Of a stretch of 64,000 nt of DNA, positions 5,445-20,627 are shown piece after piece. The position numbers were made by a program, and so were the translations under genes. Within the stretch, counting starts at the first letter, position 1, and every line of letters begins with the position of its first letter. A model generated the notes under the pieces. The model saw nothing but the letters and a program-made list of their open reading frames with translations. It did no database searches and had not been told where the DNA came from. The stretch is taken from IMG/VR virus record IMGVR_UViG_3300044630_006441, positions 32,001 through 96,000 of that record; one strand, 5' to 3'. This stretch comes from a virus.

Positions 5445-5474
5445 TTGACATTTCCAACCGGAAAGCCGATAAAT
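5445..5474 (+). promoter_or_regulatory. Host sigma70-type promoter for the first early gene
   Basis: TTGACA-17 bp-GATAAA(T); TTGACATTTCCAA recurs at 25220. Confidence 0.6.
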
Positions 5475-5529
5475 ACATCACCGGCCCCGAGGTGGGCGCC
5501 GGAGATTGTAGCCCTTGGAGTTTCGACCG

Positions 5530-6921
5530 ATGCGACAGACCGAGCTTTTTACCAGCTTCCGCACCACTTCCGCCCCCATGCCCCAAATAGCGGCGAGGGT
5601 AGCCCAAGGCGAGCTGTTCCCGGAGTTTGCCGGATCCTATGCCCGGAGCATTCCCCGCACCGAGGCCGCAACCGTGGCCGCCGCCATCGTGACCGCCGCC
5701 CAACTGCCCCCACCAGCTGACCCCACCCCCAAGGTGAGAGCGGAGCGGAGGGGGAAGACAGAGAAGATGGCCCGCAAGGTGGCCCGCATGGCCAAGCAGG
5801 CCGCACGCCGGGAGAATCTGCGCCGCAAGGCGATCAACCGGCGAGAAGAGGCGGAGGTGAGGCGAGCGGCTGACCCGTGGGCACACCTGCCCGCCCACCC
5901 CATCGACCGGAACAAGGACCCGGAGAGGGTAGCCGTCAACGCCTACCGAGAAGCCTATCGGCTTGCCAAGGAGGCCAGCACCGCCCCCACCCCGGAGCAT
6001 GCCGCCCGACTGATCGAGCAGGCCCGAGCACACTTCGCCATCGTGGTGGAGGTCACCATACCCGAGACCCGGTTTTCCGCCCGTACTGGTTCACTTGTCC
6101 GGCGTGCCTTGGGCATCTCAAATCCTAGCGCAAACTTGCTCAAATATAGCACCGGCAAGACAGCGGCCGAGCATTTTAGCGCACCCCGGGAGGAAAGGGA
6201 CCTAGGCCGAGGGGTTTACATCGCCGCCCACGCCCGTGGGAATCGTCAGGATGGCGACGCCTACGCCGCAGCGGAGGCCGCATCCGGCCGGGCATGGGTC
6301 AAGATGTTGGAGTACATCAACAACGGCGAGGAGCTGCCCCACTGTCGGCAGGTGGTGGAGAATCCGGAATGCCGGGATCGTAACATGGCCGCATTTATGG
6401 CCGGACTCGCCGCCCGCATCTACCGGGAGGAAGTGTACGGCCGACACCGCGCAAACTGCCGCCGATACAAGAGCGGCAAACCCGTGGCCTTGGGCGAACA
6501 CGACCCCGTCGATTACAGGCAGGATATCGGCAAATACACGGCCGAAAGCGACACCCGCCTTAAGCTTGTCCGGGAACTGGCCCACGCCATGAGTCTGGAA
6601 GAGATGGAGCCTCAGGCCGACCTTGACCCCCTGCGCCGGGTTTACGGATTCGCTGCCCGGTTTGGCGGTAGCCGCGCAGGCCGACCCCGTAAAGGTGAAA
6701 CGGTGACCGAGACCCCATTTCACGAGATCATGGGCAGCAGCAGGGCGAACGGCTCCCGCATCACCGATGCCATGTTGTGGCGGATCATGGGCCACATCCG
6801 GGCCAACCTTGCCGACGACATGGATCTAGACATTATCGGCGAACGGCTCGAGCTGGTCCGGATCATGTACCGGTTCTGCACCTTGCTGAACCTGACCTAC
6901 CGCATCAAGAACAGGGCATGA
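5530..6921 (+). CDS. Putative divergent sigma70-like factor with AT-hook insert
   Basis: Region-2-like (DAYAAAEAASGRAWVKML...NMAAFMAGLAARIYREEVYGRHR), region-4-like (ARFG...TETPFHEIMGSSRANGSRITDAMLWRI) and GRPRK; by-eye alignment only. Confidence 0.5.
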   Translation: MRQTELFTSFRTTSAPMPQIAARVAQGELFPEFAGSYARSIPRTEAATVAAAIVTAAQLPPPADPTPKVRAERRGKTEKMARKVARMAKQAARRENLRRKAINRREEAEVRRAADPWAHLPAHPIDRNKDPERVAVNAYREAYRLAKEASTAPTPEHAARLIEQARAHFAIVVEVTIPETRFSARTGSLVRRALGISNPSANLLKYSTGKTAAEHFSAPREERDLGRGVYIAAHARGNRQDGDAYAAAEAASGRAWVKMLEYINNGEELPHCRQVVENPECRDRNMAAFMAGLAARIYREEVYGRHRANCRRYKSGKPVALGEHDPVDYRQDIGKYTAESDTRLKLVRELAHAMSLEEMEPQADLDPLRRVYGFAARFGGSRAGRPRKGETVTETPFHEIMGSSRANGSRITDAMLWRIMGHIRANLADDMDLDIIGERLELVRIMYRFCTLLNLTYRIKNRA

Positions 6922-6972
6922 CCCCGGAGGGGAAGGGGGGGGACCGCCCCCCCGACAACCTAACCACCACCC

Positions 6973-7006
6973 AGCCCGGGAGGCCGAAAGGCACCCCGGG
7001 CTTTTT
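6973..7006 (+). terminator. Rho-independent terminator
   Basis: AGCCCGGG/CCCGGGCT stem with inner GAAA hairpin and T-run. Confidence 0.8.
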
Positions 7007-7335
7007 CGTTGCCCAGGCATCCGCCCGCCCCTGGCATGGCACCGACCGCCACCCACCACCAGGGCGACCCCGCCCCCTGGCATCTGGCCCGCCCCCATCG
7101 CCCGCCCCCAACCGTACCGGGCCAACTGGCCCGGTTGACATAATGTGATAGCAAGTGATCGTGAGACAATTTGCCCCGGACATGCACCTAGGAAAGCAAG
7201 AGGAACACGGCCAAGCCAAGCAAACAATTGATAGCAAAAGATATTGAGACAATATTGGCCTAACAGGCACTCTGGACGGAGGGGGAAAGCAAGGTGCCAA
7301 CCCCCACCACAACCAACCCCCAAGGGGACAGACCG

Positions 7336-7989
7336 ATGTTCAAGACCGAAGAGATCAACGCCACCGCCACCAAGAGCCTCGCCAAGGCTGCGGAGATGAT
7401 CAAGGCCAACATACAGACCGGGCCATGGGTGTGGCCAGTACGGGCCATGATGGCGATCTATGACCGGCAAACCGTGCTGGAACAGAACGCCGAAACCACC
7501 AGTGAGGACAACGGGGTGGGGTTCAACGGTCTGGACGCTGGCATCCTGTCCAGTTTCGCCAAGCAGGTGGCAAGGTGGGATGGCACGCCGGAAAGCCAAC
7601 GCCGGTTCCCGGTTCCCCTGTCTGAAAAGCAGCTGGCCATCGCCCGGAAGAAGATGGCCAAGTATGCGGGCCAACTGGCCCGGATCGCCCGGGCCAAGGC
7701 GGAGGCCAAGGCCGCGGAGACCCCTCCCAAGATGGTGGAGGCCCTGCCCGCCCCCAAGGCCACGGAGGGCGGCTACGGGAAAGAGCTGGCCGAGCCGACC
7801 GACAATGACCGGGCATTGAACTGTGTCACCACCATGGACAAGAAGGGCGGTTTCATGTGGTGCCCGGGGTGCAAGGAGTTCAAGGACCTGTCCGAGAGGT
7901 CCAGCATGTTCAACCAGCATGAGAAGGGCAGGGCTTACCTGTGCTACCCATGCCGGGACCAGATCGTCAAGGAGTCTGGTCTGAGCTGA
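7336..7989 (+). CDS. Conserved phage hypothetical protein with C-terminal Zn-finger
   Basis: NGVGFNGLDA...LSEKQLAIARKKMAKYAGQL; CPGC...CYPC. Confidence 0.75.
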   Translation: MFKTEEINATATKSLAKAAEMIKANIQTGPWVWPVRAMMAIYDRQTVLEQNAETTSEDNGVGFNGLDAGILSSFAKQVARWDGTPESQRRFPVPLSEKQLAIARKKMAKYAGQLARIARAKAEAKAAETPPKMVEALPAPKATEGGYGKELAEPTDNDRALNCVTTMDKKGGFMWCPGCKEFKDLSERSSMFNQHEKGRAYLCYPCRDQIVKESGLS

Positions 7990-8053
7990 CCGGCCCGGTT
8001 CGCCCGGGGGATCTGTCCCCCGGGTTTTGTTGTTCACTCAAAGGAGGTTTGTC

Positions 8054-8290
8054 ATGTTTGAGGTCAAGATCGTAGAGGGTTACATGGATCCGGGTTATTG
8101 CAACCCCAGGCATTCGGGGACCTTCCGAGGGGTGGGGCGGTCCAGATCCCCCAAGACGGCCATGCGTCTGGCCCGGGAGGCCCTCGCGCTGGACTACCGC
8201 AAGGATTTGGACCTAGCTTCGAGCTGTCCGATCTACGATTTCATGGAGATCCGGAAGAATGGCAAAGTGATCTGGCAGAAATACGACTAA
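8054..8290 (+). CDS. Hypothetical protein
   Basis: AAGGAGG RBS; ends at terminator. Confidence 0.75.
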   Translation: MFEVKIVEGYMDPGYCNPRHSGTFRGVGRSRSPKTAMRLAREALALDYRKDLDLASSCPIYDFMEIRKNGKVIWQKYD

Positions 8291-8292
8291 CC

Positions 8293-8331
8293 AAAGGGGG
8301 GAGGGGCGAAAGCCCCTCCCCCCTTTTTTTT
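8293..8331 (+). terminator. Rho-independent terminator
   Basis: GGGGGGAGGGGC-GAAA-GCCCCTCCCCCC plus T8. Confidence 0.9.
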
Positions 8332-19486: not shown

Positions 19487-19657
19487 ATGCTCAAGGACCA
19501 AACAGTCAAGGAACTCCGCGATAGTGGCTACAGCGTTGTGATCTTCTCCCCTGAGGAACTCCAAGGTATTAACCTCTACTACTTTGAGGATGAATTGGTT
19601 GGTAGGGGGTGGGAGATTATTGACGGCATGAGGCAAGAGCAGGGCAAGAAGGAATAG
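19487..19657 (+). CDS. Hypothetical protein
   Basis: AAGGAGG RBS. Confidence 0.65.
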   Translation: MLKDQTVKELRDSGYSVVIFSPEELQGINLYYFEDELVGRGWEIIDGMRQEQGKKE

Positions 19658-19699
19658 GGGTGGGGAATAGCCCACCGGGCAAGCAAAGGAGACACAGAG

Positions 19700-19882
19700 A
19701 TGGCAAAGTTCAAGTATTCGGTTACCCAGCAGATCATGGCATCCATCGAGGTGGAGGTCGAAGCCGACAACGAACAGGAGGCTCGCGAGCTGGGCAGGGA
19801 TCTGGCGTTTTCCATCCCCTTGTCGGACGGGTGGGAGACCGACGATGAAATCGTGGACGAGGAAGTCGAGAAGGAGGACTAG
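19700..19882 (+). CDS. Small acidic protein (DpnD/PcfM-like)
   Basis: IEVEVEADNEQEARE; paralog of 16104-16280. Confidence 0.68.
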   Translation: MAKFKYSVTQQIMASIEVEVEADNEQEARELGRDLAFSIPLSDGWETDDEIVDEEVEKED

Positions 19883-19884
19883 AC

Positions 19885-20079
19885 ATGACGGTCGATGAGC
19901 TGGTCAGGGATCTGTGCGCGGCCATCCTGGAAGGCGACGACAGGGAAACGCTGGAGGGCAAGGCTGCGTTCTTGCAGGCGGTGATCGATGAGGACTGGGG
20001 TTCCATAGACTCTTATTCCCCTGTCTACGAGGAGGGCAGATACCTGGCGGGGATAACCAAAAGAATCCATGCCAGATGA
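19885..20079 (+). CDS. Hypothetical protein
   Basis: Stop is a repeat TGA. Confidence 0.65.
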   Translation: MTVDELVRDLCAAILEGDDRETLEGKAAFLQAVIDEDWGSIDSYSPVYEEGRYLAGITKRIHAR

Positions 20080-20125
20080 GATATTTTCGCTGGTTCAGGC
20101 ACTCTGATCAGAAAGGAGATTTGAG

Positions 20126-20332
20126 ATGAATCGCGACATGATCGAGCAAAAGGTGGGCAAGACTTGGGACACCAACGAGCTTCAAAAGGTCTTCGAGGTT
20201 CTTGGTTTCAGTATGGGTTGCTGCGTGGTCCGCAACAGAGAAACGGGCAAGCGCGGCAGTCTTGAGTTCGACCGATTTGACCTGGAGGGGGCCGGGGCAA
20301 CCCGCCTCTATCACAGTTTCGTAGAAGGTTAA
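20126..20332 (+). CDS. Conserved phage hypothetical protein
   Basis: TWDTNELQKVFEVLGF...GKRGSLEF; AAGGAG RBS. Confidence 0.72.
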   Translation: MNRDMIEQKVGKTWDTNELQKVFEVLGFSMGCCVVRNRETGKRGSLEFDRFDLEGAGATRLYHSFVEG

Positions 20333-20351
20333 TTTACAGAAAGGATAGAAA

Positions 20352-20507
20352 ATGGACGAGCTGATAGACGAAGTCTTTAGGGTGAAGCGAATCTACAAAC
20401 TGAGCAACGAAGACATGATTCGGTACCTTGCCGAGTTCATTGTTGACGCAGGTTTGGAGATCGAATGCCAGGGTTATTTGGGCGGGATCGAACCACAAGA
20501 GGGGTGA
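20352..20507 (+). CDS. Hypothetical protein, 51 aa
   Basis: AAGGA RBS; stop is the TGA of repeat 20505. Confidence 0.6.
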   Translation: MDELIDEVFRVKRIYKLSNEDMIRYLAEFIVDAGLEIECQGYLGGIEPQEG

Positions 20508-20627
20508 GACAATATTCGCCTAAACGACACTCTAAGTGCGGCGAAAACCAGATTATAAACCGGGGTTAACGGGGGGTCTGGTTTAAGCCGCATATATAAG
20601 CTGTGCAGTCTTAATCAAGGAGATCAT

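Follow-up and report, generated by a model that had tools for sequence, protein, structure and literature searches.

A candidate phage-specific promoter array and a sigma-like gene at its head in a 145-kb virus genome

Results

The stretch of DNA studied here (the window) comprises 64,000 nucleotides, bases 32001–96000 of the 145,196-bp record IMGVR_UViG_3300044630_006441 of an uncultured virus (completeness 97%, CheckV). On its + strand it carries a gene for a 463-amino-acid (aa) sigma-like protein (5530..6921), followed by a block of small open reading frames (ORFs) in which a two-part 29-bp element occurs 26 times. A host-type promoter precedes the sigma-like gene, consisting of TTGACA (5445–5450), a 17-nt spacer and GATAAA (5468–5473) on the + strand (5445..5473). 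We consider here the elements as candidate promoters of the early host-takeover region and the 463-aa protein as the factor that may read them.

A search for TGAGAC-N17-CACTCT allowing up to 2 mismatches returned 24 matches on the + strand, from 7245 to 20533, compared with an expectation of 4.5 ± 2.1 for the whole window, and two more copies, at 7162 and 8527 and ending in CACCTA, brought the total to 26. The count and strand given in a preliminary description of this locus were therefore upheld by both the mismatch search and a scan of the genome, as was the confinement of the element to the array: all copies lie on the + strand between 7162 and 20533, in a region of about 15 kb, and none was found elsewhere in the 145,196 bp. 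The shorter string TGAGAYAWT occurs 28 times genome-wide, every time on the + strand and within positions 5258–20533 of the window, and TGAGACAAT is the most over-represented 9-mer of the genome.

The element had been described by one consensus; its copies in fact fall into two classes, and conservation does not stop with the 29-mer but takes in a T-G at positions 33–34. Class A (19 copies) reads TGAGACAATWT-N10-GGCACTCT with minor variants, while the seven class B copies (7162, 8348, 8527, 11725, 11905, 15968 and 18461) end in CTGCAC(T/C)(A/T)A. Four strong intrinsic terminators divide the array into five transcription units, and after each of them class B appears again, followed by tandem class A copies. 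The first unit opens with a class B copy ending in ATGCACCTA (7162..7190) and a class A copy (7245..7273), and closes with a terminator formed by a 15-bp GC stem and a T-run (8293..8347). The second starts directly after it with class B (8348..8376), has another class B copy with a hairpin and a GATAGCAAG box upstream (8527..8555), continues with class A at 8611..8639, 8894..8922, 9143..9171, 9527..9555 and 10267..10295, and ends at the terminator 11673..11724. The third repeats this arrangement, with class B directly after the terminator (11725..11753) and again behind a hairpin and GATAGCAAG box (11905..11933), then class A at 11985..12013, 12060..12088, 12146..12174 (upstream of a GP88-family gene, 12218–13117), 13115..13143 and 14059..14087, up to the terminator 15839..15875. 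About 100 nt past the latter lies the class B copy of the fourth unit (15968..15996), with class A at 16037..16065, 16278..16306 and 17694..17722 and a terminator at 18345..18385. The fifth begins about 90 nt further on with class B (18461..18489) and holds class A copies at 18523..18551 (a TGAGAT variant), 18590..18618 (ending in CACTCC), 18836..18864, 20077..20105 (a TGAGATATT variant) and 20505..20533, the last copy, a variant ending in CGACACTCT. All these elements and terminators are on the + strand.

The best internal argument that the elements are promoters is that terminator-bounded units restart with them. They also consist of two conserved blocks at fixed spacing, lie on the coding strand upstream of genes and are kept in relatives, all of which supports the earlier proposal of a dedicated promoter class. 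One part of that proposal, the hexamer rule by which CACTCT has A in second and T in sixth place, does not hold in the relatives. This correspondence to the canonical -10 rule (A at -11, T at -7) is confined to class A of the window phage, and at the same position class B and the relatives have CACAAG, CACTAA, CAATTA or CACTTA. About eight upstream ORFs terminate with the element's own TGA, among them those ending at the class A copies at 8894 and 10267 and the GP88-family gene ending at the copy at 13115.

Downstream of 11 of the 19 class A copies, among them those at 8611, 8894, 9143, 9527, 10267, 12060, 13115 and 14059, a GC hairpin of -14 to -23 kcal/mol stands at a fixed position, and in these copies the Shine-Dalgarno (SD) sequence and ATG sit 20–50 nt further downstream. 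G-runs previously taken for ribosome-binding sites just behind the element are, in these 11 copies, the 5' arm of the hairpin; in the other eight the SD does come directly after the element, as at 16037, which lacks a hairpin and has its SD close by, and at 16278, also without a hairpin, where AGGAG and an ATG follow within 18 nt. When all 19 class A copies are taken together, the hairpin energy downstream is not below that of random 45-mers of the region (p = 0.17), and the hairpin signal is limited to the 11-copy subset with a fixed position. A hairpin at the very 5' end of an RNA is a common stabilising arrangement.

Two further features accompany class B. Orphan class B downstream halves lacking the TGAGAC half occur right after terminators at 15897–15905, 18404–18412 and 29636–29644, reading CTGCACTTA or CTGCACTAA, and TGCACTTAT; the one at 29636 lies outside the array, and its CGCCCACATTTCC leader is shared with two class B copies, 8348 and 11725. 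In all five lineages described below, a conserved GC hairpin, GTACCGGSCC-loop-GGSCCGGT, stands ahead of each unit's second class B copy, and after the hairpin come a hexamer resembling TTGACA or TCGACA and a (G)ATAGCAAG box (window positions 7115–7160, 8480–8526, 11858–11904 and 18427–18460; also in L007, L008, L019, L023, L025 and L026). A dyad search outside the array for other promoter classes gave only noise, and neither a phage DNA database search nor an exact-motif scan of viral contigs returned anything useful.

The 463-aa protein had been described as containing segments similar to sigma regions 2 and 4. There is no sequence-level signature of this kind, as the sigma70 profiles for region 2 (PF04542) and region 4 (PF04545, PF08281, TIGR02937) left the protein unmatched; the predicted fold, however, appears to resemble sigma domains 2 and 4. 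AlphaFold (AF2) models were all-helical, with a mean predicted local distance difference test (pLDDT) score of 62 for the full length and 69 for residues 125–463. In an exhaustive VIA-align search of 48,161 PDB chains with the full-length model, about 20 of the 26 top rows were sigma factors with Z of 6–7.7, including RpoD (Z 7.7), WhiG (Z 7.6, 166 aligned), the SigC sigma2 domain (Z 7.2, root-mean-square deviation (rmsd) 2.5, 88/89 residues), BldN (Z 7.2, rmsd 2.8, 78 residues) and sigmaA domain 2 (Z 7.0, 110/122), as well as SigW, sigmaE, SigB, RpoS, SigK, AlgU and sigma32. The sigma2 alignments span model residues ~128–305, at Z below 8 and a model pLDDT of 62–69, and the full-length sigmas (WhiG, RpoD, SigB, sigma32 and AlgU) align from residue ~130 to 425–434. 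The trimmed model matched the same sigma families at Z 5.3–6.6, mixed with unrelated helical proteins; with Foldseek its top 24 of 24 rows were sigmaA chains over 313–373 columns, with weak E values of 0.13–0.7. Searches of BFVD and the ESM Atlas by structure, and of the Atlas by feature, gave nothing useful. Each score alone is weak, and because the enrichment for sigma factors spans two aligners and two models we regard the structural support for a sigma identity as moderate and a sigma-like fold as quite probable.

According to the models, residues 1–125 form a basic, disordered or coiled-coil N-terminus, residues ~130–305 sigma2-like helices with an insert of ~50 residues, and residues ~397–432 a helix-turn-helix (HTH), in which a motif hhG-S/K-R/K-x-T-A-x-R is visible in the alignment of homologs. 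An RAGRPRKG loop lies at 381–392. The corresponding AT-hook-like GRP loop, RAGRP(R/K)xGE, precedes the HTH in lineage 1 and is absent in lineages 2 and 3, whose upstream element halves lack the AATWT tract, a correspondence that is only a hint.

Homologs of the 463-aa protein (308–483 aa, 16–56% identity, the remotest, in L026, detected by profile comparison) were found in relatives that share the gene order of the window. A terminase gene, a 279-aa gene and a 186-aa sigma gene lie on one strand, and on the opposite strand a small ORF is followed by the 463-aa homolog and then by an array of small genes. The relatives' arrays include the GP88 family and ArdA, and the presence of the latter is in keeping with an early anti-defence region. 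The check on co-occurrence that the preliminary description had called for came out in its favour, as gene and array are found together in five lineages, the homolog heading the array in all five. Two more distant lineages retain the neighbouring ECF-type (extracytoplasmic function) sigma; in the limited sequence available, both the 463-aa gene and a TGCAC array are missing from them.

In all five lineages the element has two parts with an identical 21-nt offset between the halves. The upstream half is TGAGACAATWT in lineage 1 (the window, L007 and L008), TGAGCCAAACC in lineage 2 (L019), (C)GTGACGAAGC in lineage 3 (L023), T(T/A)GGACATTAT in lineage 4 (L025) and TGGGAAT in lineage 5 (L026); its cores (TGAGACAAT, TGAGCCAAAC, GTGACGAAGC, T(T/A)GGACATTA and TGGGAAT) thus differ by lineage, and within a lineage one upstream half is common to classes A and B. 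The downstream core is kept across lineages, as GCA throughout and TGCAC in class B, whose downstream half is TGCACT plus 2–3 nt in every lineage. Downstream halves of class A are lineage-specific and read GGCACTCT, TGCACTYT, TGCACAAG, TGCAATTAGGG, CGACACAAAG and TGGACTARGG. This combination of a conserved downstream half with a lineage-specific upstream half suggests that whatever reads the former is itself conserved, and that the reader of the latter has changed from lineage to lineage. Within the protein, identity between lineages is highest in helix 283–305 (30%) and lowest in the HTH and C-terminus (16–19%), a pattern which weakly parallels the constant -10 core and the variable -35 half. 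Two other readings of the element were discarded. TGAGACAAT cannot serve as an extended -10 (TG-n-GACAAT, with the rest as 5' leader) given that TGAGCCAAAC and GTGACGAAGC in lineages 2 and 3 have no -10 character, and a sigma54 promoter (GGCAC ... TGC) does not agree with the relatives, which have CTGCAC, not GG, at -24.

The host-type promoter reported at 5445 is both present and conserved. It precedes the homolog as TTGAC(A/T)-N17-GATAAA, GATATT or TTTATT in L007, L008, L019, L025 and L021 (lineages 1, 2 and 4, plus L021), and in a looser form, TAGACA-N17-TCTAAT, in lineage 3. The conservation of a TTGACA-type promoter ahead of this gene suggests that the hosts recognise canonical promoters; the phages would then keep a promoter of that kind for this one gene, and the array would have another -10. 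A lone sequence similar to the upstream half, TGAGATATTTT, stands 15 nt before the TTGACA (5430..5440, +), with similar lone elements in L012 and L007 and an inverted one in L008; it may serve in autoregulation or as an UP-like tract.

Among lineage-1 phages, homology begins and ends at elements, in blocks whose order is not the same in the window, L007 and L008. Sublineages differ in which gene cassettes stand between elements and in what order (window 7274–15967 compared with L007, L008 and L009). The array genes of the window phage are ORFans.

The preliminary description recognised only one sigma-like gene and had overlooked three to four genuine sigma70-family genes, one of them next door. 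These lie at 4203–4790 (-), 41823–42356 (+), 49551–50522 (+) and perhaps 28650–29216 (+); the three clear and one weak genes, of ECF size, imply on sequence grounds a multi-sigma cascade. The neighbouring one (4203..4790, -) is a 195-aa ORF in the list of open reading frames, its relatives starting at a MALP motif and having 186 aa; it matches Sigma70_r2 with 30.9 bits, above the cut-off, and TIGR02937. Divergent from the array, it heads the terminase and structural operon, and is 88–96% identical across lineages 1–2 and 68% in lineage 5. A CxxC...HC insert lies between its region 2 and short C-terminus. In the 65-bp divergent spacer (4942–5006) between the sigma operon and a 79-aa ORF, conserved inverted repeats read CTAC-AAAG-TAG in the window, and homologous spacers in L007, L008, L019 and L023 have repeats AAGTAAGTGCC...GGCACTT; the spacer looks like an operator. 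The 79-aa ORF (5007..5246, +), also called in relatives, is the first + strand gene and is followed by a hairpin at 5258–5300.

Leftward genes encode packaging and structural functions, including a T4-type large terminase (723–2912, -). The block of small ORFans runs rightward from ~5000, and DNA-metabolism genes lie beyond it, for example ribonucleotide reductase at 58460. Outside the window, G000:C1:131777-144226 (L015) encodes a 4149-aa tape measure protein, implying an exceptionally long siphovirus tail; as this ORF is a tape measure protein, its reading as a virion RNA polymerase was rejected. A genome search found no T7-like polymerase domain, with the positive control of the same search also giving no match. 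On these two observations the phage most likely depends on the host core polymerase for its transcription. In two related lineages the large terminase contains an intein (Intein_splicing, LAGLIDADG; L026:5573-8410 and L028:5051-8470). The contig ends (G000:C1:1-1799 and 143398-145196) are 87% identical in register, 75–98% by block, with two 285-aa ORFs in these 1.8 kb, and represent either a diverged terminal duplication or variants assembled across a circular junction. A palindrome, TTGTCGACAA, occurs in 10 copies across the whole genome (e.g. G000:C1:1079 and 144485) and may be another regulatory site.

Discussion

We propose that the 26 elements are a phage-specific promoter class driving the ORFan-rich early host-takeover region and that they are read by the 463-aa sigma-like protein, a reading to which we give a probability of about 0.5. 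The statistics of the elements, their arrangement, the pattern kept in relatives and the resemblance in fold are observed; promoter activity, start sites, core binding and the assignment of each half to a protein are what we infer. Once the DNA has entered, the host's RNA polymerase, carrying the primary sigma, would use TTGACA-N17-GATAAA at 5445 to produce the 463-aa protein, which would be a very divergent sigma70-family-like factor with a sigma2-like part at ~130–305 and a C-terminal HTH at ~397–432. This protein would bind core polymerase and direct it to the two-part elements, its variable HTH reading the lineage-specific upstream half (TGAGACAATWT here) and its more conserved sigma2-like helix 283–305 the near-invariant downstream core (T/G)GCAC. 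Transcription would start around element positions 34–36, at the conserved T-G, and in 11 copies the GC hairpin would form a protective stem-loop at the 5' end of the RNA. The terminators would divide the array into five units, each restarting with class B and then class A. The wider proposal, that this is an unrecognised phage sigma family with an invariant non-canonical -10 core TGCAC and at least five -35 specificities in five lineages, heading a cascade of four or five sigmas in this 145-kb siphophage, we put forward tentatively.

Several observations weigh against this interpretation. The 463-aa protein matched no family in Pfam (E up to 1), PHROGs, NCBIfam or PDB profiles, and hhalign against the phage's own sigmas gave a probability of 2.4%. 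The structure scores are middling (Z below 8, Foldseek E of at least 0.13, mean pLDDT 62 and 69), rows for Rap2a, Tai4 and tetratricopeptide repeat (TPR) proteins tie with sigma rows for the trimmed model, and all-helical models attract spurious matches. In lineage 1 the protein has diverged to 46–56% identity while the upstream half is identical, so that co-variation, seen over five lineages only, is coarse. That a single sigma should serve two different downstream halves, in classes A and B, is unexplained, and three orphan class B downstream halves (15897, 18404 and 29636) have no upstream half at all. An anti-restriction protein should ideally be made sooner than ArdA would be from a phage-sigma promoter. 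Lastly, the reader of the array could instead be one of the three or four recognisable sigmas that the genome encodes.

Another phage sigma, alone or together with the 463-aa protein, is an unlikely but concrete candidate for the reader of these promoters, and the prime candidate is the small sigma encoded at 4203–4790 (-). It is a true Sigma70_r2 protein that adjoins the array in every lineage, and its conservation (88–96% identity in lineages 1–2, 68% in lineage 5) parallels the invariance of TGCAC. The geometry TGAGAC-N16-GCAC also resembles ECF promoters, such as that of SigW (TGAAAC-N16-CGTA). The C-terminus of the small sigma seems to lack the length for a complete region 4, which would leave room for a partner at the upstream half, and in a combined variant the small sigma would recognise TGCAC with the 463-aa protein as a cofactor binding the upstream half in the manner of T4 MotA. 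However, the small sigma heads the opposite-strand terminase/structural operon, which is the usual place of a late-gene regulator, lineages in which it is 49–56% identical show no TGCAC array in the limited sequence at hand, and the sigma2-like fold predicted for the 463-aa protein would be unneeded by a simple DNA-binding activator.

It is improbable that the elements are strong early promoters for the unmodified host holoenzyme, homogenised by recombination, with the 463-aa protein doing something else. The upstream half does have a GACA core like that of TTGACA, a TG falls at the extended -10 place if the -10 is set at element positions 25–30, anti-restriction genes, ArdA for instance, are as a rule switched on immediately, and cassette shuffling at the elements could homogenise copies. 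Nevertheless, no register yields TAnnnT across lineages (CACTCT, CACAAG, CACTAA, CAATTA, ACTCTG etc.), lineages 2 and 3 contradict TGAGACAAT as an extended -10, these phages have TTGACA-N17-GATAAA/GATATT as the promoter of the one gene that precedes the array, and the upstream half varies by lineage whereas the specificity of host sigma is universal. We consider it very improbable that the elements are not primarily promoters and instead act on long transcripts as signals for RNA processing or translation, or are sites of recombination bounding mobile cassettes. Homology between sublineages begins and ends at elements and cassette order differs, the element TGA is a stop codon for about eight ORFs, and hairpins follow many copies; yet two blocks with a variable spacer of fixed length suit reading by a two-domain DNA-binding protein, unlike an RNA motif, the conserved blocks take part in no structure, and copies stand directly after terminators, where restarting transcription needs a promoter. 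A role in recombination would coexist with promoter function, as in the promoter early stem-loops (PeSLs) of T4 (PMC2839356, PMC4122927).

As proposed, the 463-aa protein and the array would form a sigma cascade of the SPO1 gp28 type, a variant built on a new protein family. The promoter class of SPO1 gp28 (with gp33/gp34) has its own -35 and -10. In the SPO1 scheme (PMC13401047) a sigma made from a gene transcribed by the host holoenzyme redirects core polymerase to a phage promoter class. Since gp28 follows the same logic, an early-acting phage sigma is less unusual than described earlier, and an unprecedented strategy would be too strong a claim. The two phages are alike in having several sigmas per genome and a host-takeover region densely packed with promoters, putative ones in the present case. 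They differ in that here the takeover region itself is the putative target, while that of SPO1 is read by host sigmaA; in the protein, which is 308–483 aa long with a long basic N-terminus and without detectable sigma-family sequence similarity; and in the putative promoter, TGAGACAATWT-N10-(T/G)GCAC. Phage-encoded sigma-like proteins also direct the host core to middle and late promoters in phiEco32 (gp36) and phage 7-11 (PMC8948821). Unlike the 463-aa protein, those sigmas can be identified from their sequence; their targets are later genes, and no promoter array of such density and uniformity has been described for them.

An architecture of sigma2 plus sigma4, as in the ECF (group 4) sigmas SigW and RpoE, is suggested by the structural matches to SigW, SigC, SigK, BldN, CnrH and AlgU. 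The ECF consensus comprises a GAC/AAC-type -35, an A/T tract, ~16 nt and a short C-containing -10, a pattern that the array element fits. Unlike ECF sigmas, the 463-aa protein matches no ECF profile, has an insert of ~50 residues in sigma2 and ~125 extra N-terminal residues, and has no evident anti-sigma partner. Similarity to T4 MotA/AsiA lies in an early phage protein giving the polymerase a new upstream-element specificity for the next class of genes. MotA, however, is not sigma-like and acts through host sigma70, whereas the predicted fold here points to sigma replacement, so that the comparison would apply only if the small sigma were the reader. In T4, uniform early promoters and stem-loops flank small ORFans as PeSLs and mark shuffling breakpoints (PMC2839356, PMC4122927). 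Here too a uniform motif, a putative promoter, borders shuffled ORFan cassettes together with hairpins. PeSLs, though, are host sigma70 early promoters with the stem-loop as a terminator upstream of the promoter, while in this array the -10 is non-canonical and the hairpin lies downstream of the element.

What is new, if our proposal holds, is a protein family invisible to profiles, a host-takeover block placed under a phage factor and a -35 half that has diversified naturally. If the 463-aa protein does read the array, current annotation pipelines have missed an entire sigma family, and the whole host-takeover region would be under the control of the phage's sigma rather than the host's. Five upstream halves paired with five protein variants would then provide material to study the evolution of -35 recognition and ready-made, mutually orthogonal sigma/promoter pairs for orthogonal expression systems. 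The dense array with its 5' hairpins would, moreover, be a second, independent PeSL-like cassette architecture outside the T4 group.

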